From assembly GCA_964484345.1 (NCBI GenBank), contig CAZAGE010000015.1:27975-59974 (forward strand): 32,000 bases of DNA, given 5' to 3'. The DNA comes from an uncultured Oceanicaulis sp. (lineage in GTDB: Bacteria > Pseudomonadota > Alphaproteobacteria > Caulobacterales > Maricaulaceae). Below, piece by piece: positions 1 to 30,525 of this stretch. Made by a program: the position numbers and the translations under genes. The first letter of the stretch is position 1. Each line of letters opens with the position of its first letter. A model generated the notes under the pieces. The model worked only from the letters and a program-made list of their open reading frames with translations. It made no database searches and was not told the DNA's origin.

Positions 1-247
1 GGGGAAATCCCGACCGTTCAAAGCGTGTCATACCTTCGCAGGCGCCTGCCCGCTGGACGGGCGCCATGCGCGGCGCGCCTGCGGGGCGACCGGCTGAAGC
101 TTCCCCGCCCCGCGGACCGGTCTCGCCGGCCCAGCCTAAGCGCTGCCGATCGGCGGTCGCGAACCTCTTTGCCGCGTTTCATTTTCCTGACGACCCAGCA
201 TACTCAAAGAGTTATGCTCTTAACCTGAGGCTTGGAGGTCTGCTGAC

Positions 248-1135
248 ATGCGTTTGGTCATCCCCCTGCCGGGCAATGACGCCTTCGCCGAGGCGATCGC
301 GCAGCACGCCGGTTTTGAGCTTGGCGCGCTTGAGGTCCGGCGCTTTCCCGATCAGGAGAGCTATGTACGCTTGCTGAGCGAGGTCGAGGGCCGGGATATC
401 GATTTCGCCTGCACGCTGGCCAAACCCGACCCGGGCTTTCTTCAACTGATTTTCGCCGCGGACGCGGCTCGGTCACTAGGCGCGCGCACGGTCAATCTGG
501 CCGCACCCTATCTCGCCTATATGCGCCAGGACAAGCGCTTCAAACCCGGCGAGGCGGTCACCTCGCTCAGCTTTGCGCGCCTGTTATCCTCAAGCTTCGA
601 TCATCTGGTCACCGTCGATCCGCATCTGCATCGCCACCCGTCGCTGGACGCGCTCTACACCCTATCCTCCACGACCTTGCACGCTGCGCCTGTGCTGGCT
701 GGGTGGATTGGTCGTGAAGTCGAGGCTCCGCTGTTGATCGGCCCGGATGCGGAAAGCGAGCAATGGGTTGGCGAGAGCGCGCGCGCCATCAATGCACCTT
801 ACGCCGTCTTGAGCAAAACGCGGCACGGCGATCGAAGCGTCGAGATCACCTTGCCGGATCTGTCCGTATGGGCGGGGCGCCAGCCGGTGCTGATCGACGA
901 CATCGCCTCCTCCGGCCGCACCTTGATCGAGGCGGCGAAGAAACTTGGCCAAGCCGGGTTTGCGCCGCCGGTCTGCGCGGTGGTCCATCCTCTGTTCGCG
1001 GAAGATGCGTTTGAGGCGCTGCGTGCGGTGAGCGCCGACATCATCTCCACCGATTGCGTGCCGCATCCAAGCAACCGCGTCTCGCTGGCGCCTTTGATCG
1101 CCGAAACCCTATCAGGCTTGAGGGATGCGCCATGA
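248..1135 (+). CDS. ribose-phosphate pyrophosphokinase (PRPP synthetase) family protein, short 295-aa form
   Basis: 295-aa ORF. GGAGG (234-238) lies 9 nt before ATG 248. It carries the PRPP-binding loop 'PVLIDDIASSGRTLIEAA' and has Prs-like overall layout. Its stop overlaps the next gene's start (ATGA at 1132-1135). Confidence 0.8.
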   Translation: MRLVIPLPGNDAFAEAIAQHAGFELGALEVRRFPDQESYVRLLSEVEGRDIDFACTLAKPDPGFLQLIFAADAARSLGARTVNLAAPYLAYMRQDKRFKPGEAVTSLSFARLLSSSFDHLVTVDPHLHRHPSLDALYTLSSTTLHAAPVLAGWIGREVEAPLLIGPDAESEQWVGESARAINAPYAVLSKTRHGDRSVEITLPDLSVWAGRQPVLIDDIASSGRTLIEAAKKLGQAGFAPPVCAVVHPLFAEDAFEALRAVSADIISTDCVPHPSNRVSLAPLIAETLSGLRDAP

Positions 1136-3492
1136 CCCAGAGCCCCGCTCAGCTTTGGCAAGCCGGATGCGGCCCCATCGTCCACAGGCCGGAGACGATC
1201 CAGCGCGCAGAAACCCTGCTGCACCGCCCCGGCATCGATGAAGCGACGCTATTCGGCCAGCTCGCCGCCGCAGACCGGCTGACCTGCGCCGCCATGTGGA
1301 CGATCACGCATATGACCTATGCCCGCCGCGTGGACCTGTCCGGCGCGCCGCTGCCGCGCGAGGCGTTCAAGCCCGATCCGCAGGGCCATACCGGCGGCTC
1401 GCTGAATATGGCGCCCGCCTTCGTGGGATATCTTTTGGCCAATGCGATAAGCGGCCACACCCGCGCCTGGCTGATGGGGCAGGGTCATTGCGTCGCGGCG
1501 ATTGAAGCCGTCAATGCGCTCACCGGCGATGTCTCGCCCCGACAGCGCGGACGCTATGATCGCACCCAGGCCGGCTTGTCGCACCTGGTGTCGGACTTCT
1601 ACAGCTATGCCATCGATCCCTCCGGCCGGCCCGGCGTGCCCCTGGGCAGCCATGCCGGTCCCGATACCGCGGGAGCGGTGTCTGAAGGCGGCTATCTCGG
1701 CTTCGCCGGCGTTCAATATGTGCATATGCCGCTGCCGGGCGAGCGCCTGGTCGCCTTCTTGAGTGACGGCGCCTTTGAGGAACAGCGCGGCTCGGACTGG
1801 TCGCCGCGCTGGTGGCGGGCGGAGGATTGCGGCCTGTCCGTGCCGGTGATGATCCTTAACGGGCGCCGGATCGAAGAACGCACTCAAATCGCGCAAGAGG
1901 GCGGCGCGGCTTGGTTCGCTGCTGATCTCGCCCATAACGGCTTTGACCCCATCCTGATTGACGGCCGCGACCCGGCCGCCTTCGCCTGGGCGATCTTGGA
2001 AGCGGAGGCGCGGCTAGAAGCCTTTGCGTCCGACCCAGACCGCCGCTACCCGGCGCGCCTGCCCTATATCATCGCGGAAACGGAAAAGGGGTTCGGCTTC
2101 CCGGGCGCTGACGCCAACGAAGCCCATAACCTGCCGCTGAAGGGCAATCCTTTCGATGATGCTGACGCACGTGAGGCGTTTAACGCCGGCGCCGCCAAGC
2201 TTTTCGTGCCGCCTGAGGCGCTGGAGCAGGCGGTCGGCGCGTTGGCGACCCATAGCGCGCAAGCACGGCCGCTGGAAAGCGGTCACCCTTTGGCGTCGCG
2301 CCAACCGCCTGCGCCTGATCTTCCCAGCCCGGATTGGCGCAAGCTTGAGGCGCGGTCAGCCAGCGCGATGCAGGCTTTGGATGATTGGTTCGTGCGCTTT
2401 GTCGACGCCAATCCGACGCTGCGCGTCCGCGTCGGCAATCCCGATGAGCTGCGCAGCAACAAGATGGGCGCCACGCTCGACCGGCTAAAGCACCGGGTGA
2501 ACCAGCCAGAGCCCGGCATCGCCGAAGCGGTTGATGGCGCGGTGATCACCGCGCTCAACGAAGAAGCCGTCGCCGGCGCCGCTCTGGGTAATAAGGGCGG
2601 GCTTAATCTCATCGTCAGCTATGAAGCCTTTGCGGTGAAGATGCTGGGCCTTATGCGCCAGGAGATTATCTTCGCGCGGCGTCAAAAGGAGGTCGGAGCA
2701 GCGCCGGGCTGGCTCTCAATCCCTTTGCTTGCGAGCTCCCATGTCTGGGAGAACGCCAAGAATGAGCAATCCCACCAAGATCCAACCCTCGGGGAAGCGC
2801 TGCTCGGCGAGATGTCGGACACCTCGCGCGTGATGTTCCCGGTCGACGCCAACTCGGCCATGGGGTGCCTGAAAGCGCTTTATGGCGGGCGCGGGGAATT
2901 CGCCTGCCTGATCGTGCCCAAGAAGCCCTTGCCCCATCGCTTGGGCGCCGCTGCAGCGCAAGCGCTCGCCGCCGATGGCGCGGTTCATGTCCAAGGCGAG
3001 GCGGATGCAGCGGATGTGCAGCTTGTCGCCATCGGCGGATATCAGCTCGTCGAGGTCCTCAAAGCCGCAGAGCGGCTGTCGGCGCAGGGCATCGCGCCGC
3101 TGGTCACCGTGCTGGCGGAGCCTGGCCGCTTCCGGGCTCCCCGCGACGAGATCGAGGCGGCGTTCACGGCGTCTGACGATCAGGTTGAGGCGCTGTTCCC
3201 GAGCCGAACGCCGCGCGTTCTTGCCTGCCACACCCGGCCTGAACCGATGCTCGGTGTCTTGCGCCGGATCGACGCCGGGCCAGGGCGCACAGCGGCGTGC
3301 GGCTATATCAACCGCGGCGGTACGCTGGATGTGGCCGGCCTTTTGTTCGCCAACCGCTGCAGCTGGGCGCATTTGGTGGAGGCGGCGGCCTCGGTGTTGG
3401 ATCGACCGGTTTCCGGCCTGTTGTCAGAAGACGAGATCGCAGCGCTCGCCGGGCGCGGCGATCCGACTGTCATCATGAAACCGAAAGGGTGA
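1132..3492 (+). CDS. xfp: phosphoketolase (xylulose-5-P/fructose-6-P phosphoketolase family)
   Basis: The track ORF is 1054-3492. I chose ATG 1132 because it forms an ATGA overlap with the upstream stop. The result is 786 aa, a typical Xfp length. The TPP-enzyme-like segments 'GHTGGSLNMAP', 'GQGHCVAAIEA', 'SEGGYLGF' and 'NPDELRSNKM' are consistent with phosphoketolases. Confidence 0.85.
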   Translation: MTQSPAQLWQAGCGPIVHRPETIQRAETLLHRPGIDEATLFGQLAAADRLTCAAMWTITHMTYARRVDLSGAPLPREAFKPDPQGHTGGSLNMAPAFVGYLLANAISGHTRAWLMGQGHCVAAIEAVNALTGDVSPRQRGRYDRTQAGLSHLVSDFYSYAIDPSGRPGVPLGSHAGPDTAGAVSEGGYLGFAGVQYVHMPLPGERLVAFLSDGAFEEQRGSDWSPRWWRAEDCGLSVPVMILNGRRIEERTQIAQEGGAAWFAADLAHNGFDPILIDGRDPAAFAWAILEAEARLEAFASDPDRRYPARLPYIIAETEKGFGFPGADANEAHNLPLKGNPFDDADAREAFNAGAAKLFVPPEALEQAVGALATHSAQARPLESGHPLASRQPPAPDLPSPDWRKLEARSASAMQALDDWFVRFVDANPTLRVRVGNPDELRSNKMGATLDRLKHRVNQPEPGIAEAVDGAVITALNEEAVAGAALGNKGGLNLIVSYEAFAVKMLGLMRQEIIFARRQKEVGAAPGWLSIPLLASSHVWENAKNEQSHQDPTLGEALLGEMSDTSRVMFPVDANSAMGCLKALYGGRGEFACLIVPKKPLPHRLGAAAAQALAADGAVHVQGEADAADVQLVAIGGYQLVEVLKAAERLSAQGIAPLVTVLAEPGRFRAPRDEIEAAFTASDDQVEALFPSRTPRVLACHTRPEPMLGVLRRIDAGPGRTAACGYINRGGTLDVAGLLFANRCSWAHLVEAAASVLDRPVSGLLSEDEIAALAGRGDPTVIMKPKG

Positions 3493-3496
3493 CGCC

Positions 3497-4858
3497 ATGT
3501 TGACCCTCACCTGCCTGGGCGGGGCCGGGACCGTCACCGGCTCCAAGCACCTCCTCACCCATAAGGGCCGGCGCATTCTCATCGATTGCGGCATGTTCCA
3601 GGGCTTGAAAAATCTCCGTGAGCTGAACTGGGAGCCTTTGCCGATCGCGCCGTCGAGCATTGATGCGGTGGTGCTGACGCATGCTCATCTCGATCATTGC
3701 GGCTATCTGCCCAGGCTGGTCGCCAATGGGTTTCGCGGCTCTGTCCACGCCACTTCGGCGACGGCGGATGTGGCGGAGATCATTCTTCGCGATGCAGGCT
3801 ATCTGCAGGAGAAGGACGCCGAATACGCCAACCGCAAGGGTTTCACCAAGCATAAGCCGGCCTTGCCGCTTTACACCGGCGAGGATGTCGAGCGCGCGCT
3901 GGGCCTGTTCGCGCCAGCGGGCTTTGACGAAACCATATCTCTGCCTGGCGGGGCCGAACTCAATTTCCGGCGCGCCGGCCATATCCTCGGCGCGTCTATC
4001 GTTGAGATTGAATGGGCGGGGCGGCGCATTGTGGTCTCGGGAGATCTGGGCCGCTATGGCGATCCGATGATGTTCGATCCGACGCCTGTTTCGGACGCTG
4101 ACTATGTGCTGCTGGAATCCACCTATGGCGACCGCTTGCACGAAGCTGACGACCCATTGGAGGAGCTCGGCGCCATTGTTGAGCGGACGATTAAGCGTGG
4201 CGGCACTTTGCTGATCCCGTCCTTCGCGGTCGGCCGCGCGCAGCTTATTCTCTACTATCTCTGGCAATTGAAGCGGGCGGGCCGGATGAATTCCGTGCCG
4301 ATCTATATGGACAGCCCGATGGCGATCGACGCGACGGACTTGCTGCGCGACCATATCCAGGATCACCGCCTCGACCGCGACAGTTGCCGGGAAATGTGCG
4401 CGATCGCCGAATACACGCGCGATGTCGAGCAATCCAAGGCGATCACCGCCAGCCGCTATCCCAAAGTGGTGATCTCCGCCAGCGGCATGGCGACGGGCGG
4501 CCGGATTTTGCATCATCTCAAAGCGTTCGGGCCGGATAGGCGCAGCACCATTTTGTTCGCGGGGTATCAAGCGGCCGGCACCCGAGGGCGCCGGCTGCTG
4601 CGCGGTAAGCGGGAGGTGAAAATCCATGGAAGGTGGATTCCCATTGAGGCGGAAGTCGCTGACCTGTCCCAGCTGTCCGCCCACGCCGATGCGGACGAAT
4701 TGATGCGCTGGCTGTCCGGCTTCCAACGTGAGCCGGAGCGGATCTTCATCGTCCATGGTGAGCCCGAAGCGTCCGACGCGCTGCGCGTGCGCATTCAAGG
4801 CGAGGAGCTCGGCTGGCGCGCCAGCGTGCCCCGCCCCGACCAGGTGTTTGATCTATGA
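3497..4858 (+). CDS. metallo-beta-lactamase fold hydrolase with beta-CASP domain (RNase J/CPSF-like RNA-metabolising family)
   Basis: 453 aa. Motifs: HxHxDH 'LTHAHLDHCG', 'LLESTYGDRLH' (beta-CASP ESTYG signature) and 'LSAHADADEL' near the C-terminus. An AAGGGTG SD precedes the start, and only 4 nt separate it from the xfp stop. Confidence 0.85.
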   Translation: MLTLTCLGGAGTVTGSKHLLTHKGRRILIDCGMFQGLKNLRELNWEPLPIAPSSIDAVVLTHAHLDHCGYLPRLVANGFRGSVHATSATADVAEIILRDAGYLQEKDAEYANRKGFTKHKPALPLYTGEDVERALGLFAPAGFDETISLPGGAELNFRRAGHILGASIVEIEWAGRRIVVSGDLGRYGDPMMFDPTPVSDADYVLLESTYGDRLHEADDPLEELGAIVERTIKRGGTLLIPSFAVGRAQLILYYLWQLKRAGRMNSVPIYMDSPMAIDATDLLRDHIQDHRLDRDSCREMCAIAEYTRDVEQSKAITASRYPKVVISASGMATGGRILHHLKAFGPDRRSTILFAGYQAAGTRGRRLLRGKREVKIHGRWIPIEAEVADLSQLSAHADADELMRWLSGFQREPERIFIVHGEPEASDALRVRIQGEELGWRASVPRPDQVFDL

Positions 4859-6370
4859 GCCTTCTCGACATCCCTTCCGAAGCCCGAGAGCGTCGTCCTA
4901 CCTTGCGCGCCAAGCGGCTGCATTTGAACACGCAGAGCGAGCCGGTCGTGGTGATGCGGACCGATTGCCATGTCTGCCGGTCCGAAGGCCTGTCCGCCCG
5001 CTCGCAAATTCTGCTGTCCAATAACAGCCATCAGGTGCAGGCGACGCTGTATCAGATTGAAGGCGGCGACCTGCTCGCGCCCGATGAGGCGGGTCTGTCT
5101 GAAAGTGCCTGGGATATTCTCAACATCGAGGATGGCGAGGCGGTCGAAGTTAGCCACGCGCCGATGTTGGAATCGCTCGCCCATGTGCGCCGTCGGATTT
5201 ATGGTGCGCGGCTGGACGGTGCGGCCTTTGACGCCATCGTGCGCGACGTGGTCGCCGGACGCTATACCGAGGTCCACCTGGCCGCCTTCCTGACCGGCAG
5301 CGCGGCCTTTCCCCTGGACGAGGCGGAAATCTATGAGCTGACCCGCGCCATGGTTGAAGTGGGCGATCGGCTCGATTGGGACTCTGATCTGGTGATGGAT
5401 AAACATTGCGTCGGGGGGGTGCCGGGTAACCGGACGACCCCGATCGTGGTGTCGATCGTCGCCTCTCACGGCCTTTTCATTCCCAAGACTTCCTCGCGCG
5501 CCATCACCTCACCGGCGGGGACGGCTGACACCATGGAGACGCTCGCGCCGGTGGACCTGGACATGACCGAGCTCAAGCGGGTGGTGGAGGCGGAGAATGG
5601 CTGCATCGCCTGGGGCGGCGCGGTCCATCTCAGCCCGGCCGACGACCGCTTTGTGAAGATCGAGCGGGAAATGGACATCGACACCGAAGGCCAGCTAATC
5701 GCCTCGGTCCTGTCGAAAAAAATCGCCGCAGGCGCGACCCATGTCGTCTTCGACATTCCCATCGGGGTGACAGCCAAGGTGCGCACCCAGGAGGATGGCG
5801 ACCGTTTGGCGCGGCTGACCGAAGCCGTCGCCGCACGCTTCGGCCTGAAGGTGCAGTGCCTCAAAACCGATGGGTCGCAGCCGGTCGGCCGCGGCATCGG
5901 ACCGGCGCTGGAGGCCCACGACGTGCTCGCGGTTCTTAAGAACCAGGCCGGCGCGCCAGATGACTTGCGGCAGCGCGCGGCTCTAATCGCGGGCGCGGCT
6001 CTCGAAATGGGCGGCAAGGCGGGCGCCGGGGCCGGCGCGCCGCTCGCGCTGGAGACGATCCGTGACGGCCGGGCCTGGTCGAAATTCCAGCGCATTTGCG
6101 AGGCGCAAGGCGGGCTGCGCATGCCGCCGCGCGCCCGGTGCCGACAGGCATTGCTGGCCCCTGTTTCGGGCCGGGTCGTGCATATCAATAGCCGTAAGCT
6201 CGCCAGACTGGCCAAACTCGCGGGCGCGCCCAAGGCGCAGGCGGCGGGCGTTCTGATGGAGATTCGCTTGGGCAGCGAGATCGAGCGCGGCCAACCCATG
6301 CTGCATGTCCACGCCGACACGCCCGCGGAGCTCGATTACGCGCTCGACTATGCCGAGCGCAGCCCGGACA

Positions 6371-6396
<26 letters not shown>
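4855..6396 (+). CDS. thymidine phosphorylase family protein, long form with N-terminal extra domain (archaeal AMP-phosphorylase-like)
   Basis: 513 aa. ATGA start/stop overlap at 4855-4858. The core glycosyl-transferase family 3 segments are 'DKHCVGGVPGNRTTPIVV' and 'SSRAITSPAGTADTME'. An extra N-terminal domain of about 90-100 aa precedes the helical domain, as in the roughly 500-aa 'putative thymidine phosphorylase'/AMP phosphorylase subgroup. Confidence 0.85.
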
Positions 6397-9037
<2,641 letters not shown>

Positions 9038-9161
9038 TGCGTCAGCAGGCTATGTTGGCGCCCGCCACTTTTACACGGTTGAGCGGAGGATTCATGGCGC
9101 GCGGCTTGGCTCGCTCCGCGAGGATCCTGGCTCATAGTGCGGGTCGGGTGCAGAGGATGGA

Positions 9162-9710
9162 TCAGGCGGCGACATGCCCGGCGATAAAATCATCAACAAA
9201 GGCGTAGAGCGCGGGCCAGTCAGTGAACTCCACGTCTTTGCCCGGGTCCACGGACATATCGAGCGTTTTCACCAGGCGCTTCGCCATCCAGCGTTTGAAG
9301 AAATCGAACTCGGTGAATTTCAGAGCGCCTGCGGCGTAGTGTACAGCGCGGGGCAGCCATTTCGTCTCGCCGCACAGAATATCGACATACTGCCGCATCT
9401 CTTCGACGTCTTCCGCTTCGCCGCTGGCGGCGTGAAGCGAGACGGAGACCAGCGCACAGGGCATGCGGGTAAGCGTTTCCGCGTTCTCACTGAGAAAGCG
9501 CCGGGCGGCGGGATGGTGCGCCTGGGCATGGACCGGCGCGACGACGATCACGCCGTCATGGTCGGAAAGGGCGGGTTGTTCCGCGTGGGGCGCTGAGGCG
9601 TTGAACCCATTGGCGGCATGTTTGCTGCGGGTCAGATGATCGACAATCAAACCCGCAATCCGTGCGGATTGGCCCTCCACCGTGGCATAGACAACAAGAA
9701 TGTCGGCCAT
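9162..9710 (-). CDS. flavodoxin-like protein of the HemG (menaquinone-dependent protoporphyrinogen oxidase) family
   Basis: The track ORF starts at TTG 9716. ATG 9710 is preferred because GAGGAG lies 6 nt upstream. The N-terminus 'ILVVYATVEGQSARIA' is a flavodoxin-type FMN loop. 'AGALKFTEFDFFKRWMAK' and 'VEFTDWPALYAFVDDF' parallel E. coli HemG 'AGALRYPRYRWYDRFMIK' and 'VVYTDWEQVANFAREI' (recalled from memory). Confidence 0.65.
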   Translation of the reverse strand: MADILVVYATVEGQSARIAGLIVDHLTRSKHAANGFNASAPHAEQPALSDHDGVIVVAPVHAQAHHPAARRFLSENAETLTRMPCALVSVSLHAASGEAEDVEEMRQYVDILCGETKWLPRAVHYAAGALKFTEFDFFKRWMAKRLVKTLDMSVDPGKDVEFTDWPALYAFVDDFIAGHVAA

Positions 9711-9756
9711 CCTCAACTCCTCATGATCTCGTCACCCGCGGCGCGGAGCCACAAAA

Positions 9757-9770
9757 TTGAACGCGTTCAA
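9757..9770. promoter_or_regulatory. perfect 14-bp palindrome TTGAACGCGTTCAA (FNR/FixK/CRP-type TTGA-N6-TCAA box)
   Basis: Read directly from the sequence. It is centred about 53 nt upstream of the hemG-like ATG (9710), in the divergent region shared with lacI. It matches 8/10 positions of the FNR consensus TTGAT-N4-ATCAA. Confidence 0.35.
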
Positions 9771-9949
9771 AAGGTAAGGCGGGCGCCTGGGCGGCGCAAC
9801 GCGGCGAGCCGCGGCAAAGTGTGCGTGAATCGAGGCGCGCACCCCGCACAAAAGCCGGCGTCTGCGGCCCGGCGCAATGACATGCTTGTCAATTTCGAGT
9901 TAGCAGGTGAGGTTTACGTGCTCTTTGACGCCGCCTGCAGGACAGAGGC

Positions 9950-10972
9950 ATGACGACGATCATTGATGTGGCGAAACGGGCCGGGGTCTCGATCAAGACC
10001 GTTTCGCGGGTCATGAACAACGCCGAGAATGTGCGCCCCGCCACCGCGGAGCGGGTGCGCCAAGCCATGGCTGAGCTGAACTATCAGCCCAGCACCGCCG
10101 CGCGCGAACTGCGCAGCGGACGCTCGCGCTTTATCGGCATGTTGTTCTCCGATCCGTCCAGCGGCTTCCAGGCGCGCCTGCATCACGCGGCCCTAAAGGC
10201 ATGCGCGGAAGCGGGCTATTTTCTCGCAGCGGGCCTGTTCGACGAATCCGATCCTGATTGGCGACGCCAGTTCAGTGATTTTCGACGCAAGACGCGCGCC
10301 GATAGTCTGGTCCTGGTGCCGCCGTTGTGCGATTCCGAGGAGCTTCAGCAGGAGCTTGCCGAACATAGGGTGGCGGCGGTGACCATCGCGCCCAGCAAAC
10401 CATCTGCTTATGCGCATACCGTGCGGATGGATGATTATGGCGCGGCGCGGGAGATCACCGAGCATTTGCTCGACTTGGGCCATGTGCGCCTGGGCCACCT
10501 GTCCGGGCCGGCCGGACACACCGCATCCAGTCAACGCCGCGCCGGTTTTGAGGACGCCATTAGGGCTCATGGCCGCGCGCAGGTGCGCGAGGATTGGATC
10601 CTTCCCGGCCTGTTCCGGTTTAAAGAGGCCATCGCCTCGGCCGAGCAAATGCTGGAGGGGCCGGAGCGGCCCACCGCCATTTTCGCCGCCAATGACGAAA
10701 CCGCGGCGGCCGTCTGCTTCACCGCAGGACGAATGGGTTTGCGGGTGCCGGAAGATCTTTCGGTCGCCGGATTTGACGATGTTCCGATCGCCACCACGCT
10801 GTGGCCGCCGCTCACCACGATTGCTCAGCCCTTTGATGCGATGGCGCGGGCCGTGGTCGAGCTGATTTCCCAGACGCCAACAGATCCAGGCGTGTCCTGG
10901 ACACCACAGACGCGAACGCTCGAGCACGCATTAAAAATCCGCGCCTCGACCGCGCCTCCCATAAAGCGCTGA
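9950..10972 (+). CDS. LacI family transcriptional regulator
   Basis: 340 aa. N-terminal HTH 'TIIDVAKRAGVSIKTVSRVMNN', followed by a periplasmic-binding-protein-like sugar-binding core ('IFAANDETAAAV', 'SVAGFDD'). Confidence 0.9.
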   Translation: MTTIIDVAKRAGVSIKTVSRVMNNAENVRPATAERVRQAMAELNYQPSTAARELRSGRSRFIGMLFSDPSSGFQARLHHAALKACAEAGYFLAAGLFDESDPDWRRQFSDFRRKTRADSLVLVPPLCDSEELQQELAEHRVAAVTIAPSKPSAYAHTVRMDDYGAAREITEHLLDLGHVRLGHLSGPAGHTASSQRRAGFEDAIRAHGRAQVREDWILPGLFRFKEAIASAEQMLEGPERPTAIFAANDETAAAVCFTAGRMGLRVPEDLSVAGFDDVPIATTLWPPLTTIAQPFDAMARAVVELISQTPTDPGVSWTPQTRTLEHALKIRASTAPPIKR

Positions 10973-11120
10973 TTTTTATGCGTTAAATGGCGACCCTGGT
11001 TCGGTCAGACGTCATGACAACGCGAGACAAAGAAATTGACAAGGATAGACATTTGCGGCTGAGTGATGGGATCGAGCGCACCGTCAGCCAAAATGATCGG
11101 GCGCATTCGGGGAGGTAATT

Positions 11121-13973
11121 ATGATTCATTCACGACGCATGGCGTCGCTTCTTTCGGCCTGTTCCGCTTCTGCATTAATGCTTGCCGCCGCGCCTGGGGC
11201 TCTCGCGCAGGGAGCGGACGAAAACGATGACGCAGAGACGGAAGTCCGGGACGTTATCACCGTCACAGTTGAACGTCGTGAGCAATCCATTCAGGACGTC
11301 GCCGCTACGGTGGCCTCGTTCGATGGCGAAAGCCTGAAGGATCTTGGCATCCAGACCTTCGCCGACCTCAATGGCCGCTATCCGGGCCTGCAGGTTGCGA
11401 ATAATCAGGGCAATATCGAGGTTTATATTCGCGGTGTCGGCTCGTCGAACAACACCGAACTCGGCGAGCCGGCGGCGGCGACCCACTTGGACGGCATTTA
11501 TATTCCGCGCCCGTCTGGCTTCGGCGCGGCCTTTTTCGACATTCAGCGCGTTGAAGTGAATGTCGGTCCGCAAGGTACGCTGCGCGGTCGTAACGCGACG
11601 GCCGGGTCTGTGAACGTGATCCCTTGGCGTCCCGGCATCGGCCAGTTCAACGCGGCGCTTGAAGCCAGCATCGGCAATTACAATGAGCGCACGCTCGAAG
11701 GCGTGGTCAATATTCCGGTGACCCAGAATTCCGCCTTCCGTCTGGCGGGCTCTTATCTGGAGCATGATAGCTATTTCACCAATGTGAACCCGCCGAGCAC
11801 CCAGCTTGGCACAAGCCTTGGGATCGCGGAGTCTGAGGGGATCGGCGTTGCTGAGGCGGCTGAGAATTTCGGTTTGCGGGCGTCCTATCTGATCGAGCCG
11901 ACGGACCGCTTGCGCGTTACCTTGACCGCCGACTGGCTAGGCGAGAACGGTTCTGGCTATACCGGCGTGAACTACGCCAACCCGCTCGGCAACGGGATCA
12001 ATCCTGACGACATCTCCAATCCGCGCGACGTCGTCGGCCGCGCCTTCACCCCGGAGCTCGACACCGATCACTACGGCTTCAAAGCCCATCTGGAATATGA
12101 CACCGACTGGTTCAGCATTGAGTATATCGGCGGGTATCGCGACCTGGTTTACGATTATCGCGCCGCGACCCCGCTCTCGCCGTTCTATGACGGGGTCTAC
12201 GACAATCTGCGTAACCCGGTGGACGGCAATCTGGACGAGGCGTTCGACAACTTCTCCTGGTTCCAGTCCATCAACGACTCCGAGTCGCAGGTTCACGAAC
12301 TTCGCCTATTCAACCAGTATGACAACGGCGCGGTCTGGAATGCGGGCGTCTTCTACTTTGAAGAAGACCAGCGCACCTTCCTGGGCGCGACGGGCGACCG
12401 CGGCCCGTTTTTCTCAGGGCTGGAATTCAATCAGCGCACGCAGACGGAATCCATCGCCTTCTACGCCGACGCGACCTATCCGGTCACCGACACCTTCCGC
12501 GTGACGGCCGGTATCCGATACTCGGACGAAGACAAAGAGCGCCAGGGCGTCAACGCCCGCTACGGCTTCGCCATCGGCGGCGCAGGGTACAACTGCTGCG
12601 GCGGTGTGCGGATCGGTACGGAAGGCTTCGAGTTCAACGTCTTCGACCGCTCGATCTTCAATCCGGACACCGATGGCGACGGTCAGGTGACGGACCAGGA
12701 GACGCTGGAATTCTTCTTCGACGGCGTGAGAACCTTCGGCGCGCGCGACAATGTGGATGACATCTTCATTGATCCGGTGACGGGTCAAATTCGCGGTCTG
12801 GTCGGCGTTGATCTGGGCAATCCGGGTCAGATCGCCAGCTATCCCGATTGTTTGGACACGATTGTCGGGGATTTCTGGGACTGCCCGTCAGCCACCGACG
12901 GCATTCCGTGGGACAACGCGGCCGCGGGCAAGCTCACCTTCGCGCTGCCCTTCCTCGGTCAGATCGCCCCGCAGAACGGGTTTGCGAACTACAACTTCGT
13001 GGACTGGCGTTTGCGCTTTGAGTGGGACGTCACCGATCGCAACCTGGTTTATGGCTCGGTCAGCACCGGCCATAACGGCGGCGGCTTCAACGACAACCTG
13101 CCCGATGTCAGCGGTGTGAGCTTCAACGTCACCGGCGGCGGGTCGACGCCGTTCGACACCTCCACGTTGGCGCCGACTTTCGATGAAGAAAGCGTCATCG
13201 TCTACGAGCTCGGCTCGAAGAATGAGTTCGACACCGAGTGGGGGACAGGTTACTTCAACGCTTCGGTTTTCTATTATGATTACCAGGACTTGATCCAAAA
13301 CGTCCTGCTGTCCGTGGGGCAGATTCTGGACGGTGAAGGGCTCGATACGTCGGGCGCGGACGCAAACGAGCTCGGCCTGGTGGTGAACTTCAACTTCAAC
13401 GCCGCAGACGCTGAGATCTACGGCGCCCAGTTCGAAGCTGGTTTTGATCTTCCCGCAAACATGCAGTGGAAGGGCACGTTGTTGCTGATGCCGGAAGCGC
13501 GGATTGTGGACGCGGAGCTGATCCAAGACTCCCGCTTCCAGGCGGACGTTGCGCCGGACCAAGCGATCCCGCAGTCCATCGACGGCTTCCGTCTGCGCCG
13601 CACGCCGGAAGTGTCGATCCAGACCTCGCTCAGCCAGCGCATCTTCATGGATATCGGCGAGTTCGACTGGATCGTCTCGCTCGGCTACCGCACGTCTCAG
13701 AACCAGGATTTGTTCAACGGCGTCGTCTACCCGGAGTTTGACCTGGCCAATGACGATCCGCTCCGTTTGAACGATACGACGGAGGCGTATGCGACGATTG
13801 ACGCGGGCGCCGGCTTCACGCCGTCCCGCTTCCCGAACCTGGACCTCGAGGTCTATGTTCAGAACCTGACCGACGAGCAGAAGGAAGCGGCGATTATCAT
13901 CACCCAGTTTGATAACACCCGCTTCTTCACCCGTCCGCGCACCTATGGCGCGCGGGTCCGCTGGGTCTATTAA
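11121..13973 (+). CDS. TonB-dependent outer-membrane receptor
   Basis: 950 aa. GGGGAGG SD. Signal peptide ending 'APGALAQG', TonB-box-like 'DVITVTV', plug motifs ('IEVYIRGVGS', 'RVEVNVGPQGTLRGRNATAGSVN'), and a C-terminal beta-barrel ending 'RTYGARVRWVY' (terminal aromatic residue). Confidence 0.9.
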   Translation: MIHSRRMASLLSACSASALMLAAAPGALAQGADENDDAETEVRDVITVTVERREQSIQDVAATVASFDGESLKDLGIQTFADLNGRYPGLQVANNQGNIEVYIRGVGSSNNTELGEPAAATHLDGIYIPRPSGFGAAFFDIQRVEVNVGPQGTLRGRNATAGSVNVIPWRPGIGQFNAALEASIGNYNERTLEGVVNIPVTQNSAFRLAGSYLEHDSYFTNVNPPSTQLGTSLGIAESEGIGVAEAAENFGLRASYLIEPTDRLRVTLTADWLGENGSGYTGVNYANPLGNGINPDDISNPRDVVGRAFTPELDTDHYGFKAHLEYDTDWFSIEYIGGYRDLVYDYRAATPLSPFYDGVYDNLRNPVDGNLDEAFDNFSWFQSINDSESQVHELRLFNQYDNGAVWNAGVFYFEEDQRTFLGATGDRGPFFSGLEFNQRTQTESIAFYADATYPVTDTFRVTAGIRYSDEDKERQGVNARYGFAIGGAGYNCCGGVRIGTEGFEFNVFDRSIFNPDTDGDGQVTDQETLEFFFDGVRTFGARDNVDDIFIDPVTGQIRGLVGVDLGNPGQIASYPDCLDTIVGDFWDCPSATDGIPWDNAAAGKLTFALPFLGQIAPQNGFANYNFVDWRLRFEWDVTDRNLVYGSVSTGHNGGGFNDNLPDVSGVSFNVTGGGSTPFDTSTLAPTFDEESVIVYELGSKNEFDTEWGTGYFNASVFYYDYQDLIQNVLLSVGQILDGEGLDTSGADANELGLVVNFNFNAADAEIYGAQFEAGFDLPANMQWKGTLLLMPEARIVDAELIQDSRFQADVAPDQAIPQSIDGFRLRRTPEVSIQTSLSQRIFMDIGEFDWIVSLGYRTSQNQDLFNGVVYPEFDLANDDPLRLNDTTEAYATIDAGAGFTPSRFPNLDLEVYVQNLTDEQKEAAIIITQFDNTRFFTRPRTYGARVRWVY

Positions 13974-14001
13974 TCGAGCAACGTCCTTAAAGGAGAGCGA
14001 G

Positions 14002-14985
14002 ATGATTTTGTCATCCCTGCTCGCCGGCCTTGGGGGGACGCTGGCGCTGTCCACGGCGGAAGCCGTGGACAGCAGCCAAGCAGAGCCCGGCTGGCGTCTT
14101 GTCTGGTCTGATGAGTTCGAAGGTGAAGCCCTCGACGAGACCAAGTGGAACCGTGAAGTCGATTGCTGGGGCGGCGGCAATGAAGAGCGCCAATGCTACA
14201 CGGCGCGAGAGGAAAACGCCCGCGTCGAAGACGGCATGCTGATCCTGGAGGCGCGTTTGGAGGAGGCCACGGGCCCGGCCCTGCCGCAGCGTCTGTGGAC
14301 CACCGAAGAAGACCGCACCAACACCAATACCCAGCCTTTCACCTCCGGCCGGATCAACACGGCGGGCAAAGGCGATTGGACCTATGGCCGGATCGAAGTG
14401 CGCGCGCGCCTTCCCGAAGGTCAGGGCACCTGGCCAGCGATCTGGATGCTGCCCACCGACGAAGTTTATGGCGGCTGGGCGCTGTCGGGCGAAATCGACA
14501 TTCTGGAAGCGGTCAATCTCGGCGCGGAATGCCGAGAGTGCCGCGGCCGCGTTGAGAACCGCATCTTCGGCACGCTCCACTTCGGCGGCGCCTGGCCGCA
14601 AAACACCTATCAGAACCGCGAAACCACTTTGCCCACGGGCGAAAACGGTGAGCAGATCTTCCATGACTTCGCTATCGAGTGGAGTGAGGGACGGATCGAG
14701 TGGTTCTTGAACGGGGAATCCTACGGCTATCTGACCCAGCGCCGCTGGCGCACCCTATCGGACGCCGCGGAAGCCCGGGGCAATCCCTATGCGCCGTTTG
14801 ATCAGCGTTTCCACCTGATCTTGAACCTCGCCATCGGCGGGCATCTGGCGGAAAGCCGGTCGGCGGGCGGGGTTGATCCGCAAGGCTATCCCAAGCAATT
14901 CGAGATCGATTATGTGCGGGTCTATGACTGCCCGAGAGATCCGGAAACGGCCGTGGCGTGCCGCAACGCGGCTGTGCAGCGCTAA
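14002..14985 (+). CDS. secreted glycoside hydrolase family 16 (laminarinase / beta-1,3(-1,4)-glucanase type)
   Basis: The track ORF begins at 13909. ATG 14002 was chosen because AAGGAG lies upstream and it yields the signal peptide 'MILSSLLAGLGGTLALSTAEA'. GH16 catalytic motif 'GEIDILEA', plus 'WPAIWMLP' and 'HLILNLAIGG'. Confidence 0.9.
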   Translation: MILSSLLAGLGGTLALSTAEAVDSSQAEPGWRLVWSDEFEGEALDETKWNREVDCWGGGNEERQCYTAREENARVEDGMLILEARLEEATGPALPQRLWTTEEDRTNTNTQPFTSGRINTAGKGDWTYGRIEVRARLPEGQGTWPAIWMLPTDEVYGGWALSGEIDILEAVNLGAECRECRGRVENRIFGTLHFGGAWPQNTYQNRETTLPTGENGEQIFHDFAIEWSEGRIEWFLNGESYGYLTQRRWRTLSDAAEARGNPYAPFDQRFHLILNLAIGGHLAESRSAGGVDPQGYPKQFEIDYVRVYDCPRDPETAVACRNAAVQR

Positions 14986-15022
14986 GCGCGCCATACCAGT
15001 AGCGCATAAAGGCGCCTGATCC

Positions 15023-16480
15023 ATGACTGAAGCCCGACGCGTCACCGCGCCGGAGGACCGCGTGTCCTTCCTCCACCGGCTGGCTTATGGGTCAGGCGCC
15101 TTCGCCAATAATCTTCTGGCGGGCGCGATCACCGGCATGATCGTGCTGCTTCACGAAAATCTCGGCGTCAGCCTGGTTATGCTCGGCGTGATCACCGCAG
15201 CCCCGCGCTTCTTTGATGCGCTCACCGACCCGATCGTCGGCTACATCTCCGATAACTTCAAATCCCGCTGGGGGCGGCGTCGCCCCTTCATCTTCGTCGG
15301 CGCCATTTTAGTGGGAATCTGCTTCTTCCTGCTTTGGCAATTCCCAGAAGGCCAAAGCCCGGAGTTTTACGTCTGGTGGTATACCGCCGGGTCAATCATC
15401 TTCTTCCTGGCCTACACGATTTACGCCACACCCTGGGTGGCGCTGGGCTATGAGCTGACCCCGGACTACGATCAGCGCACCCTGCTCATGGGGACGCAGA
15501 ATTTCATCGGCCAGCTGGCCTTCTTCCTGCCGCCCTACATGCTGGTCATCGCCAAGCAGAGCGAGTGGTTCGCCGATCCGATCGATGGCGCGCGCCTGGT
15601 GGCCGCCGGCGTCGCGGTGGTGGTCATCATTTGCGGAGTCATCCCGGCGATTTTCCTGAAAGAGCGCATGGCCGATATCGCCCTGGAGGAAAGCGAACGC
15701 ACCGGGCATGGCCGTAATCTGGTCAACGAGCTCAAAGGCTTTTTCGTCAGCATGGCGCAGGCGCTGAGCTTCGTGCCTTTCTTGAAGATCTGCTTCGTCA
15801 CCTTCCTGGTCTTCAACGGCTTCATCTTGATCGCGTCTTACGGCTATTTCGTTCTGAGCTATTACGTGTTCGCCGGTGATACTGAAGCCGGCGCCGAACT
15901 CGGCGCCCTCGTCGCGACTGTGGGCTCGCTAGCGAATTTCGCCATTGTGGCCTTCGTGACATGGCTGGCTTCCCGCATCGGGCAGAAACGCACCTTCATC
16001 ATCGCCATCTCTCTGGCGATGCTGGGGTATGCGCTGAAGACTTTCGCTTACAGCCCCGAGCACCCTTGGCTGATTTTGTTGCCGGCGCCGCTGATGGCGT
16101 TTGGTTTGGGCTCTCTCTTCACCTTGATGCCATCGATGATGGCGGACGTGGTCGACCAGGACGAGCTGCGGACCGGGCAGCGCCGCGAAGGGATGTTCGC
16201 GTCGATTTATTGGTGGGTGGTCAAGCTTGGTCAAACCGCCGCCGCCATGGTCGGCGCCTGGCTCCTGGCGAGCACGGGGCTGGACGTGGACCTGGGCGGG
16301 GACCAAAGCGACGCGACCTTCCTGCTGCTGCGCGTTTACGATATCGGCTTGCCGATTTTGCTCTACGCTCTCGCGATCGGCGTCGTCTTGACGCTGAACG
16401 TCTCGCGCGAGAAGTCTGAAGCCGTTCGCACCGAGCTTGAATTGCGCCGCGGCGCGCCCGACCCGCATCCGGCCGAGTAA
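15023..16480 (+). CDS. MFS transporter, glycoside-pentoside-hexuronide (GPH):cation symporter family
   Basis: 485 aa with about 12 hydrophobic segments. GPH signature 'DALTDPIVGYISDN..RWGRRRPFI'. Confidence 0.85.
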   Translation: MTEARRVTAPEDRVSFLHRLAYGSGAFANNLLAGAITGMIVLLHENLGVSLVMLGVITAAPRFFDALTDPIVGYISDNFKSRWGRRRPFIFVGAILVGICFFLLWQFPEGQSPEFYVWWYTAGSIIFFLAYTIYATPWVALGYELTPDYDQRTLLMGTQNFIGQLAFFLPPYMLVIAKQSEWFADPIDGARLVAAGVAVVVIICGVIPAIFLKERMADIALEESERTGHGRNLVNELKGFFVSMAQALSFVPFLKICFVTFLVFNGFILIASYGYFVLSYYVFAGDTEAGAELGALVATVGSLANFAIVAFVTWLASRIGQKRTFIIAISLAMLGYALKTFAYSPEHPWLILLPAPLMAFGLGSLFTLMPSMMADVVDQDELRTGQRREGMFASIYWWVVKLGQTAAAMVGAWLLASTGLDVDLGGDQSDATFLLLRVYDIGLPILLYALAIGVVLTLNVSREKSEAVRTELELRRGAPDPHPAE

Positions 16481-16565
16481 CAGGCGGGACAAGCGGAGGG
16501 AAACCGGTTTAAAACCCCAATGACAACGTTTACCTACAGCGCTCAGAGGTTCGAGGAAGACGATA

Positions 16566-20220: not shown

Positions 20221-20251
20221 CTTGGGTCGTTAAGCGGCCCGAGGCGTGTCC

Positions 20252-23885: not shown

Positions 23886-23895
23886 GGAGCCCCCC

Positions 23896-26443: not shown

Positions 26444-26473
26444 ACGGGCTGCGTTCCGCGTGGAGAAGACGCG

Positions 26474-26593
26474 ATGACGCTCTATCTCTTGCTCTTCATG
26501 GAAGCCTTGCCCTTTCTCGCTCTCGTGGCCTTCGGCGTCCGAGAGCTGGTGCTGCTGGATCGGCTAAAGAAAGACCAGGACGGAGCTGAGTGA
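26474..26593 (+). CDS. unannotated micro-ORF, 39-aa single-pass membrane peptide (MTLYLLLFMEALPFLALVAFGVRELVLLDRLKKDQDGAE)
   Basis: Below the ORF-track length cut-off; I translated it by hand. GGAGAA SD lies 6 nt before ATG 26474. The stop TGA (26591-26593) shares one base with the tspO ATG (TGATG). It has one hydrophobic helix followed by a charged tail. Hand-counted third-position GC is about 74%, similar to tspO. Confidence 0.45.
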   Translation: MTLYLLLFMEALPFLALVAFGVRELVLLDRLKKDQDGAE

Positions 26594-27057: not shown

Positions 27058-27206
27058 GCGTTGATAGCTATTATCTGGTCAAAGGCCTGCTGGTCTTCGG
27101 CGGCCTGTTCGCCTTTTTGGGCTGGCAGTATTGGGATGTCAGCCGCGACATCCGGCGCGCCAAGGCCAAAGAGGCCTCAGAAAGCGCGGGGCATTCGGAA
27201 GGGTAG
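27054..27206 (+). CDS. unannotated micro-ORF, 50-aa single-pass membrane peptide (MSVDSYYLVKGLLVFGGLFAFLGWQYWDVSRDIRRAKAKEASESAGHSEG)
   Basis: ATGA overlap with the tspO stop (27054-27057). GGGAG SD (27043-27047) lies 6 nt upstream. It has one hydrophobic helix followed by a basic/acidic tail. Hand-counted third-position GC is about 74%. Its 3' end overlaps the convergent crtC by 30 nt. Confidence 0.5.
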   Translation: MSVDSYYLVKGLLVFGGLFAFLGWQYWDVSRDIRRAKAKEASESAGHSEG

Positions 27207-29563: not shown

Positions 29564-29581
29564 TGACAGGTCCGGTCAGAG

Positions 29582-29599: not shown

Positions 29600-29648
29600 C
29601 ATAAGTTGACAGGTTATGTTGACGCCTGCAAGCAAGGAGGAGTGTGGC

Positions 29649-30515: not shown

Positions 30516-30525
30516 GCGCGGACTG

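Follow-up and report, generated by a model that had tools for sequence, protein, structure and literature searches.

A mobile four-gene operon of Proteobacteria that may degrade RNA or nucleotides to acetyl-phosphate by an archaeal-type logic

We analyzed a group of four genes at one end of a 32,000-nucleotide (nt) stretch of DNA from an uncultured Oceanicaulis sp. of the Alphaproteobacteria (assembly GCA_964484345.1, contig CAZAGE010000015.1, positions 27,975 to 59,974). The whole of this stretch is called the window, and positions are counted from its first letter. The gene layout was obtained from a listing of the open reading frames (ORFs) of the window and by direct reading of the sequence. 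The four genes lie on the plus strand and encode, in this order, a protein resembling phosphoribosyl pyrophosphate (PRPP) synthase, here called Prs-like (248-1135, 295 amino acids, aa), a divergent thiamine pyrophosphate (TPP) enzyme of the phosphoketolase family (1132-3492, 786 aa from the ATG at 1132), a beta-CASP metallo-beta-lactamase (MBL) ribonuclease (RNase) of the TTHA0252 type (3497-4858, 453 aa), and a long-form, archaeal-type nucleotide phosphorylase-like protein (4855-6396, 513 aa). The longest ORF of the second gene begins at TTG 1054, and ATG 1132 is favoured as the start because homologues and independent gene calls are 786 aa long.

Two of the gene junctions are ATGA overlaps (1132-1135 and 4855-4858); at the third, the stop codon TGA (3490-3492) is separated by CGCC (3493-3496) from the ATG at 3497. 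These are exactly the two overlaps and the 4-nt gap reported in a preliminary description of this DNA, which took them to imply stoichiometric co-expression. The latter claim was overstated, since stop/start overlaps permit translational coupling and alone are no proof of stoichiometry. Ribosome-binding sites were recognised by eye as GGAGG before 248, GAGGGA before 1132 and AAGGG before 3497; the start at 4855 has only a weak one.

The family of the 513-aa phosphorylase was established by its scores with curated hidden Markov models (HMMs). The protein passes NF003338 (666.8 bits, cut-off 434) and TIGR02645 (573.9 bits, cut-off 434.6), a model with the title 'putative thymidine phosphorylase, archaeal type'. 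It remains under the cut-offs of all models for DeoA, the classical thymidine phosphorylase (TP), and for pyrimidine nucleoside phosphorylase (PyNP), with 185 bits vs 269 for NF004490, 130 vs 571 for TIGR02643, 170 vs 409 for TIGR02644 and 135 vs 559 for NF004747. Among solved structures it scores 338 bits with 4GA5, the AMP phosphorylase of T. kodakarensis, to which it is 42% identical over 434 aa, as against 126 bits or less with TP and PyNP chains. Its Pfam domains begin at residue 113 and the alignment with 4GA5 at residue 71. The N-terminal extension is real and homologous to that of the archaeal long form, because the NF003338 match covers residues 17-508. Two loops of the protein, GGVPGNRT and PKTSSRAITSPAGTAD, closely match the T. 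kodakarensis enzyme: DKHCVGGVPGNRT aligns with DVHSIGGVPGNKT, and PKTSSRAITSPAGTAD with PKTSSRAITSAAGTAD, and the patterns GGVPGNxT and PKTSSRAITSxAGTAD are nearly identical in the two proteins. We take both loops to differ from those of classical TP/DeoA. The structural scores, and 478 bits with the AMP_phos model vs 185 with the DeoA model, bear out the earlier statement that the protein belongs to the long form, as distinct from DeoA. Judged from its sequence, the protein is a candidate nucleoside monophosphate (NMP) phosphorylase that would make ribose-1,5-bisphosphate.

Natural fusions of the phosphorylase were looked for in an exhaustive HMMER search over 1.84 billion cluster representatives, which yielded 593 clusters at E<=1e-30; the best 150 of these were considered. 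The phosphorylase is fused to PhnN in 14 of the 150 representatives (TIGR02322, 160-199 bits, cut-off 156) and to a Prs-like domain of the PRK07199 type in one (P0256). PhnN is a ribose-1,5-bisphosphokinase of the carbon-phosphorus (C-P) lyase pathway, and its only known substrate is ribose-1,5-bisphosphate. With this sole substrate, the PhnN fusions argue that the phosphorylase family makes or uses ribose-1,5-bisphosphate, which is what an NMP phosphorylase should do. Taken together, the PhnN and Prs-like fusions point to ribose-1,5-bisphosphate/PRPP chemistry. No PhnN homologue was found near the Prs-type modules of 80 loci.

The PhnN-phosphorylase fusions have a gene neighbourhood of their own. 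At three loci (L086:7133-10064, L087:7133-10064 and L088:7154-10076) the fusion gene is located directly downstream of a NadC-like gene of the quinolinate/nicotinate phosphoribosyltransferase family. A TAXI-TRAP transporter adjoins, and L088 also has a molybdo-flavoenzyme of the xanthine-dehydrogenase type. By their gene content these loci look like an undescribed 'PRPP cycle' for an N-heterocyclic acid, in which a base and PRPP would form a nucleotide, the nucleotide would give a second base and ribose-1,5-bisphosphate, and the latter would be returned to PRPP.

Two further features of the phosphorylase family were observed. In the N-terminal domain of the bacterial clade, residues 37-45 (D-C-H-V-C-R-S-E-G) are conserved, with Cys38 invariant and Cys41 present in at least 90% of 23 sequences; this N-terminal cysteine motif, together with Cys185, could be a metal- or redox-sensing feature. 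Four homologues (P0279, P0286, P0311 and P0337) contain an intein with a LAGLIDADG homing endonuclease within the catalytic domain, and three more (P0312, P0324 and P0375, 912-1006 aa) have a like split-match pattern that suggests an intein.

The Prs-like protein consists of the Pfam domains Pribosyltran_N and Pribosyltran. It passes the NCBIfam model NF005537 of the PRK07199 subfamily (409.8 bits, cut-off 322) and TIGR01251 (187.8 bits, cut-off 113) and fails the cut-offs of every class I Prs equivalog and of the archaeal PRK00934 (203 vs 296). Among solved structures it is closest to the class III Prs of the archaeon M. jannaschii (1U9Y, 140 bits). Class III Prs of archaea is not known to have the allosteric ADP inhibition that would stop the housekeeping enzyme at low energy charge. 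The motifs GPDxESxQW, FPDxE, PYLAYMRQD, DPHLHR, KxRxGDR and DDIxSSGRT are conserved across 69 members of the family, and we take the last five to be the nucleotide- and ribose-phosphate-binding motifs of Prs. The near-obligate adjacency to the phosphorylase described below and the natural fusion P0256 suggest a specialised role for this protein.

The third protein contains the Pfam domains Lactamase_B, Beta-Casp (121 bits) and RMMBL (69 bits). It scores 275 bits with the T. thermophilus chain deposited as 'Ribonuclease TTHA0252' (2DKF/3IEK), with which its HAHLDH metal motif and its SAHAD/VHGE motifs are aligned. It is under the NCBIfam cut-offs of Cas14 (392 vs 800) and aCPSF1 (262 vs 580). 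This close relationship to the TTHA0252 chain agrees with the beta-CASP MBL family named in the preliminary description.

The phosphoketolase-family protein matches the Pfam domains XFP (140.3 bits, cut-off 22) and XFP_N (38.1 bits, cut-off 23.7). The XFP_C domain was not detected, yet the alignment with 8IO6 reaches residue 757. Its catalytic residues were examined by alignment with the 825-aa Bifidobacterium enzyme and with two canonical phosphoketolases from related loci; the list of these residues, in B. longum numbering, follows the structural literature on Bifidobacterium. The window protein keeps the equivalents of His64, His97, His142, His320, Glu437, Ser440, Glu479, Tyr501, Asn549, His553, Lys605, Asp182 and Asn215, and the catalytic set and the Asp/Asn of the TPP-Mg motif are invariant in 18 members of the clade. 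The TPP-Mg motif itself reads SDG...N in the divergent clade instead of GDG...N. With these residues in place the protein looks like a working phosphoketolase-type TPP enzyme. The protein matches at least 3240 clusters at 90% identity (E<=1e-10), and its divergent clade is named 'xylulose 5-phosphate 3-epimerase' in RefSeq/PGAP. This name looks like a propagated mis-annotation because the sequence has a TPP-binding motif together with the catalytic residues of a phosphoketolase.

The gene neighbourhood was then compared across genomes. A pattern scan derived from the phosphorylase alignment, with one genome per species, gave more than 600 matches; the best 80 loci were analyzed, and module genes were called within 10 kb by tblastn with the window proteins. 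Around the phosphorylase gene, the Prs-like gene occurred in 69 of the 80 species genomes, the beta-CASP RNase gene in 58 and the gene for the divergent phosphoketolase in 20. With the RNase abbreviated as MBL, the phosphorylase as TP, the Prs-like protein as PRS and the phosphoketolase as PK, the commonest gene strings were MBL-TP-PRS (22 loci), TP-PRS (20), PRS-PK-MBL-TP, which is the order in the window (8), PRS-MBL-TP (6) and PK-MBL-TP-PRS (4). A reciprocal search of metagenomes with the Prs-like protein as the query gave 43 loci with enough flanking sequence, in which the phosphorylase was found 37 times, the RNase 28 times, a phosphoketolase-like gene 17 times and acetate kinase 8 times. 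These counts indicate that the Prs-like protein is a dedicated partner of the phosphorylase and no stray housekeeping gene. Since the module families adjoin each other in most of 160 independent loci, the arrangement is not due to chance. The conserved core consists of the phosphorylase and the Prs-like protein, with or without the RNase. The synteny of the four families that the preliminary description had left to a neighbourhood analysis thus recurs in Alpha-, Beta- and Gammaproteobacteria, in Gemmatimonadales and on plasmids.

Clustering of the neighbouring ORFs ranked acetate kinase fifth among the neighbour families by frequency (13 of the 80 loci) and next after the module genes among the metabolic ones; it is almost always with or near a phosphoketolase gene. 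A canonical phosphoketolase, recognisable by GHWGTSPG, FRSHQVPL and SHTWRQDHNGYSHQGPG and 24% identical to that of the window, is encoded directly upstream of TP-PRS-MBL in L068 and L077. One contig (L133) carries MBL-TP-PRS followed by a canonical phosphoketolase and acetate kinase, and another (L158) PRS-PK-acetate kinase. The occurrence of two unrelated phosphoketolase clades beside the same module indicates that they were recruited independently, and this independent recruitment is the strongest comparative argument for a functional link between phosphoketolase and the module. The other recurrent neighbours include P1B ATPases, multicopper oxidase, MerR, a CzcN-like methyltransferase and HlyD, all metal-related, as well as the stress-related Hsp20, tandem universal stress proteins (USPs), polyhydroxyalkanoate (PHA) synthase (PhaC), type II glyceraldehyde-3-phosphate dehydrogenase (GAPDH), CBS and MgtC. 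Fe-alcohol dehydrogenase (Fe-ADH), a PAS kinase with a NarL-type regulator, hmpA and truncated haemoglobin recur near modules as well. Neighbourhoods of the Hsp20/USP/PhaC/GAPDH/Fe-ADH type are typical of hypoxia loci.

Type II (archaeal-type) GAPDH-like genes were seen near the module in L003, L005, L006 and L024 and on a plasmid (L081:1-36). Such an enzyme could process the glyceraldehyde-3-phosphate that is released by phosphoketolase.

Direct data on regulation come from two published studies of Bradyrhizobium (B.) diazoefficiens. The core microoxic proteome of this bacterium includes bll3115 (MBL), bll3116 (Prs), bll3117 (TP family) and bll2518 (phosphoketolase family), all of which show induction of their RNA as well (PMC6515984). 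The predicted operons bll3117-bll3116-bll3115 and bll2518-bll2517, the latter encoding phosphoketolase and acetate/propionate kinase, each have a FixK2 box, and the expression of bll3117-3115 and bll2518-2517 falls 6.6- to 30-fold without functional FixK2 (PMC9104804). The putative phosphoketolase Rpal_1869 of R. palustris TIE-1 is a FixK target (PMC3050613). Across our loci, exact TTGA-N6-TCAA boxes upstream of the first module gene number 6, in 5 of 76 loci, vs 1.06 expected; if one mismatch is allowed, there are 22 sites in 19 of the 76 loci vs 9.3 expected. These enrichment figures are rough because whole-locus sequence served as the background.

The preliminary description had also pointed to similar gene sets in the Burkholderia low-oxygen locus. 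The lxa locus of Burkholderia cenocepacia encodes an MBL-superfamily metal-dependent RNase (BCAM0300), acetate kinase and a cation P-type ATPase, and in addition alpha-crystallin, USPs, PHA synthase and alcohol dehydrogenases (PMC3721108). The comparison is thus correct for the RNase, acetate kinase and the ATPase; the text of that paper mentions neither phosphorylase nor Prs nor phosphoketolase, and for this reason the lxa locus was rejected as a direct precedent (PMC3721108).

The module is also mobile. Matches to the operon region were found on 139 plasmids of PLSDB; 58 of these are conjugative, and nine carry all four genes (in Agrobacterium, Rhizobium, Ciceribacter, Paracoccus, Pseudorhizobium and Novosphingobium). 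On one Agrobacterium plasmid the module is inside a copper/mercury resistance island (cop, mer) that also encodes a Crp/Fnr regulator; on pLA4 of Novosphingobium it lies in an island of the nitric oxide/hypoxia type and is surrounded by universal stress proteins, hmpA, truncated haemoglobin, MgtC and response regulators. A 10-kb segment that contains the four-gene cassette is 96% identical in nucleotide sequence between a contig of Pseudomonas putida and one of Thauera (L011, L012 and L013, ~2860-13070). This identity, together with carriage on conjugative plasmids (L081, L082), indicates recent horizontal spread.

We propose that the four-gene operon follows the archaeal logic of nucleotide degradation ('pentose bisphosphate') in a bacterial form that ends in phosphoketolase and not in RuBisCO, a proposal to which we give an even chance of being right. 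The likeliest role of the module is to gain ATP from RNA or nucleotides at low oxygen. In the proposed route the TTHA0252-type RNase, whose activity is suggested by homology, would release 5'-nucleotides from RNA. The AMP-phosphorylase-like enzyme would then convert NMP and phosphate to the base and ribose-1,5-bisphosphate, as its 42% identity to the archaeal enzyme and the PhnN fusions suggest. The archaeal-type Prs-like partner would join the ribose-1,5-bisphosphate/PRPP pool to ribose-5-phosphate by some reaction in one direction or the other. From there a housekeeping isomerase and epimerase are assumed to produce xylulose-5-phosphate, the candidate substrate from which the divergent phosphoketolase would form acetyl-phosphate and glyceraldehyde-3-phosphate. 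Acetate kinase, encoded beside the module in other genomes, would finally make ATP. The module would be mobile cargo that is used under oxygen or energy limitation; regulation of this kind is established in Bradyrhizobium and is suggested elsewhere by the neighbours and by FNR-like boxes.

Several results weigh against this proposal. One concerns the step from ribose-1,5-bisphosphate to the substrate of phosphoketolase, which is not encoded in the module; we know of no module enzyme that turns ribose-1,5-bisphosphate into a pentose monophosphate, and neither ribose-1,5-bisphosphate isomerase nor RuBisCO was identified among the annotated recurrent neighbour families. The Prs-like protein does not fit easily either. 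Canonical Prs converts ribose-5-phosphate and ATP to PRPP and AMP, and this reaction consumes ATP and runs away from catabolism, so that it is ill-fitting for a catabolic route. With regard to the phosphorylase, its score with TIGR03327, the equivalog model of AMP_phos, is 478.1 bits and thus under the cut-off of 535. The assignment to the AMP phosphorylase subgroup made in the preliminary description therefore stands in so far as the protein is of the archaeal long form and far nearer to AMP phosphorylase than to DeoA, while membership in the equivalog itself is not reached. Furthermore, in the D-x-H-S motif, which contacts phosphate in classical TP, Cys185 replaces the Ser of the T. kodakarensis enzyme and is invariant in the bacterial clade.

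The phosphoketolase end of the route raises further objections. The window protein scores at best 135 bits with the NCBIfam phosphoketolase models, vs a cut-off of 962 (the other models give 70-116 bits vs 777-1518), and about 76 bits with solved phosphoketolases (PDB); these scores place it in a very divergent clade far under every curated cut-off. Throughout this clade Lys replaces His548 and Asn replaces Gln546; Ser often takes the place of His152, and the residue at Arg442 varies. With His548Lys, Gln546Asn and the variable Arg442 around the active site, the substrate of the clade may differ. The earlier naming of this gene as phosphoketolase thus holds for the XFP family and for the intact catalytic residues, with the reservation of this divergence. 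Moreover, the phosphoketolase gene is present in just 25-40% of the loci, and 60-75% have none within 6-10 kb. Because it is missing in most loci, the acetyl-phosphate end may be an add-on to a core of other purpose. Bradyrhizobium qualifies this point, as there the phosphoketolase is encoded elsewhere in the genome and is co-regulated. The idea of a route from RNA or nucleotides to acetyl-phosphate, as first put forward for this DNA, is accordingly supported in its synteny, its protein families and its acetate kinase neighbour, and is weakened by the ribose-1,5-bisphosphate step and by the limited occurrence of phosphoketolase.

The setting of the module adds to these objections. No FNR/FixK box (TTGA-N6-TCAA) was found in the full 348-nt region upstream of the window operon, and a scan of the operon region for sigma-70 promoters and terminators gave nothing informative. 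The link to low oxygen that the preliminary description had suggested is supported by the microoxic induction and FixK2 dependence in B. diazoefficiens and by the enrichment of boxes upstream of other modules, and is not reflected in a box at the window's own locus. In addition, many loci belong to plasmid islands for resistance to copper, mercury or heavy metals, which could mean a different selective context.

One way in which the missing step might be closed is offered by the Prs-like protein itself. In the active site of Prs the C1 hydroxyl of ribose-5-phosphate attacks the beta-phosphate of ATP, with AMP as the leaving group. Given this chemistry, and since there is no other candidate for the ribose-1,5-bisphosphate step, the Prs-like protein might in vivo be no PRPP synthase, and might instead run this chemistry backwards and pass the C1 phosphate of ribose-1,5-bisphosphate to AMP, as in ribose-1,5-bisphosphate + AMP <-> ribose-5-phosphate + ADP, or catalyze PRPP + AMP -> ribose-5-phosphate + ATP. 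We offer this idea on chemical grounds and consider it unlikely.

Other explanations of the operon have to be weighed against the proposed RNA or nucleotide catabolism. A possible, if unlikely, one is PRPP-centred nucleotide remodelling, in which the phosphorylase and the Prs-like protein recycle the ribose-phosphate of NMPs to PRPP/ribose-1,5-bisphosphate for base salvage (adenine nucleotides, NAD) in growth arrest, with phosphoketolase and acetate kinase as an optional outlet. This explanation accounts well for the phosphorylase and Prs-like pair as the invariant core and for the many loci, a majority, that have no phosphoketolase nearby. It also agrees with the fusion of PhnN, which converts ribose-1,5-bisphosphate to PRPP, to the phosphorylase family in 14 representative clusters, and with the position of the PhnN-fusion genes directly downstream of a gene for a PRPP-using NadC-like phosphoribosyltransferase. 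All Prs catalytic motifs are kept in the Prs-like protein, and its nearest solved relative belongs to the archaeal class III, which is not known to be inhibited by ADP. However, to free bases and then rejoin them to PRPP is futile unless the type of base or nucleotide changes, and no phosphoribosyltransferase was identified among the annotated recurrent neighbour families of the Prs-type module. That phosphoketolase, acetate kinase and type II GAPDH were recruited repeatedly and independently points instead to a flux of carbon and energy. If the 513-aa protein were itself a PRPP-dependent phosphoribosyltransferase of the TrpD kind, with the Prs-like protein as its private source of PRPP, the operon would be biosynthetic or detoxifying. 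The glycosyltransferase-3 fold does include anthranilate phosphoribosyltransferase, weak TrpD matches exist, and both fusion partners, PhnN and the Prs-like domain, are PRPP-forming enzymes. This is nevertheless quite improbable in view of the 478-667 bits with the archaeal phosphorylase/AMP-phosphorylase models vs 44 with TrpD; the loops that contact phosphate and ribose in TP are nearly identical to those of AMP phosphorylase, and genes producing an acceptor are not conserved nearby.

The plasmid islands suggest a role of the module as cargo in copper or heavy-metal stress, for example by removing RNA or nucleotides that have been damaged. MerR/CueR, P1B ATPases, multicopper oxidases, CzcN-like methyltransferases and HlyD/RND genes adjoin the module in many loci, the Agrobacterium plasmid island contains cop and mer, and both the 139 plasmid matches (58 conjugative) and the P. 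putida/Thauera identity of 96% over 10 kb fit such cargo. Co-location in islands is possibly hitch-hiking, however, and the same Agrobacterium island holds the Crp/Fnr regulator while other contexts are of the nitric oxide (NO)/hypoxia type. As the window locus is without metal-resistance genes and the sole expression data link the genes to microoxia, we regard a metal-stress role as decidedly improbable. Anti-phage defence, or the targeting of nucleic acids by the beta-CASP nuclease combined with nucleotide depletion, is barely credible. The MBL protein has a sub-threshold match to Cas14 of type VII CRISPR (392 vs a cut-off of 800) and a weak precomputed match to the Pfam family Anti-Pycsar_Apyc1, and the module is mobile. 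The likeness to Cas14 is that of a shared beta-CASP fold, though; the nearest structure is the stand-alone RNase TTHA0252, and the neighbours are metabolic and stress genes. The reading as a defence system was rejected because none of the four proteins matched a PADLOC model.

A comparison with known systems places the module more precisely. The archaeal AMP/pentose bisphosphate pathway of T. kodakarensis consists of AMP phosphorylase, ribose-1,5-bisphosphate isomerase and type III RuBisCO. Like that pathway, the module uses an N-terminally extended protein of the thymidine-phosphorylase superfamily, 42% identical to AMP phosphorylase, and in the proposed logic the base is likewise stripped by phosphorolysis and the ribose bisphosphate fed to central metabolism. 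Unlike it, the module has no ribose-1,5-bisphosphate isomerase or RuBisCO in the scanned window ORFs or among the annotated recurrent neighbours, and it has an obligate Prs-like partner and an outlet through phosphoketolase with or without acetate kinase. Its phosphorylase falls in the TIGR02645/PRK04350 group below the AMP_phos cut-off, its hosts are mesophilic Proteobacteria, and it is plasmid-borne and mobile. With the phosphoketolase pathway of bifidobacteria, lactic acid bacteria and cyanobacteria the module shares an XFP-family TPP enzyme, the catalytic His/Glu/Tyr/Asn/Lys and the acetate kinase neighbour. It differs in that the window enzyme has only ~76 bits with solved phosphoketolases and clade-invariant substitutions of His548 and Gln546, and is encoded in a putative nucleotide-degrading operon and not in a sugar-fermentation context.

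The lxa families recur around modules in other genomes and in L085, an 86%-identical relative of the window locus, as in hypoxia loci of the lxa/DosR type. This likeness is one of neighbourhood and type of regulon; according to the text of the paper, the core module is not shared with the lxa locus. The end steps of the C-P lyase pathway (PhnP/PhnN, ribose-1,5-bisphosphate to PRPP) would have the ribose-1,5-bisphosphate intermediate in common with the phosphorylase family, as the PhnN fusions imply. In contrast to C-P lyase, phn genes are missing from the window operon, where a Prs-family protein takes the position of PhnN, and unlike the window operon the PhnN fusions adjoin the NadC-like phosphoribosyltransferase and a TRAP transporter. 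In the literature we found no paper that describes this pathway, or a proteobacterial AMP phosphorylase beyond omics tables, in a search that did not cover subscription journals; the preliminary description's view that no described pathway uses the four-gene combination agrees with this result.

The operon is flanked in the window by other genes. The upstream segment (1-247, plus strand) is the 3' part of a 348-nt intergenic region between the operon and an Fe-alcohol dehydrogenase gene and holds the GGAGG; this dehydrogenase gene is divergent from the operon and is located beyond the window edge on the source contig (L083). The exact window protein is present on two metagenome-assembled contigs. 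On the downstream side, a minus-strand gene (6371-9037) encodes a P2-type (Ca/Mg-like) cation P-type ATPase with the Pfam domains Cation_ATPase_N, E1-E2_ATPase, Hydrolase and Cation_ATPase_C; its top NCBIfam match, TIGR01522, is under the cut-off (662 bits vs 798). Its 3' end overlaps that of the plus-strand phosphorylase gene by 26 nt (6371-6396). As a convergent gene on the minus strand with such an overlap, the ATPase gene is a neighbour outside the operon. The overlap is also kept in L084 and L085, and convergent transcription could negatively couple the expression of the phosphorylase and ATPase genes.

It had been suggested that modules of this kind are associated with a P-type ATPase. 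P2-type homologues (32-41% identity) accompany the module in no more than about 10 of 160 loci, and the 'ATPase' neighbour cluster (27 loci) consists mostly of P1B heavy-metal pumps. The P-type ATPase was therefore rejected as a consistent partner of the module.

Upstream of the ATPase gene is a minus-strand gene for a Flavodoxin_5 (HemG-like) protein (9162-9716; Pfam PF12724, 84.6 bits), which has an equivalent position in L084 and L085. A perfect palindrome of the FNR/FixK type, TTGAACGCGTTCAA (9757-9770), lies 41 nt upstream of this flavodoxin-like/ATPase gene pair. It is not conserved in L085, and the number of such matches in the window is not above chance, so that the palindrome is weak evidence for FNR/FixK control of the pair. 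In L085 the module is preceded by genes for phasin, a PAS kinase with a NarL-type regulator, PHA synthase and Fe-ADH, and is followed by those for the P2 ATPase, a host-attachment protein and the flavodoxin-like protein.

Further along the window, positions 9950-18791 contain a LacI regulator, a TonB-dependent receptor, a GH16 glucanase, a GPH/MFS transporter and a GH3 glucosidase. This cluster between the module and the photosynthesis genes probably serves the utilisation of beta-glucan (laminarin-type). An ABC1-kinase gene (18847-20160) is found just upstream of a partial photosynthesis cluster (20246-31629) that comprises bchI, bchD, an alpha/beta hydrolase, crtI, crtB, tspO, an ORF without Pfam match, crtD and two more ORFs. 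Here bchI, bchD, crtI, crtB and crtD were named by Pfam domains and gene order, and tspO by a direct Pfam match. From these genes the host is probably a bacteriochlorophyll-containing alphaproteobacterium. No ribose-1,5-bisphosphate isomerase, RuBisCO or acetate kinase was found in the 20 large window ORFs scanned, with the last two ORFs (29616-31629) outside the scan, and within this scope the absence of these three enzymes noted earlier is correct. The window has no tRNA or integration-site signs of an island and an even GC content, and no metal-resistance genes were found among its scanned ORFs.

Together, these results indicate that the module is a real, widespread (thousands of protein clusters) and mobile variant of a known pathway logic. 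How strictly aerobic and phototrophic Proteobacteria survive without respiration is a question that arises for nodule rhizobia, for Burkholderia in the lungs of cystic-fibrosis patients and for persisters in the environment. Starving cells have no larger dispensable reserve than their ribosomal RNA, and if the proposal is true, a mobile module that leads from RNA to acetyl-phosphate and ATP would be a concrete survival mechanism. In that case 'archaeal' AMP-phosphorylase chemistry would also be present in thousands of bacterial genomes, a Prs paralogue would gain a new role, and functions could be given to four large protein families that now have generic or wrong annotations, including the 'xylulose 5-phosphate 3-epimerase' clade of RefSeq. 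Being plasmid-borne and often close to metal-resistance genes, the module may also contribute to bacterial fitness in hospitals or at polluted sites. If, in addition, the Prs-like protein converted ribose-1,5-bisphosphate and AMP to ribose-5-phosphate and ADP, the gap in the pathway would be closed and the energy of the N-glycosidic bond would be saved as a phosphoanhydride. A self-contained 'RNA fermentation' would then result from the joint action of the Prs-like protein, the RNase, phosphoketolase, acetate kinase and (type II) GAPDH; it would yield several ATP per nucleotide without respiration, and the kit for it would be spreading on plasmids among aerobic Proteobacteria for survival in anoxia.

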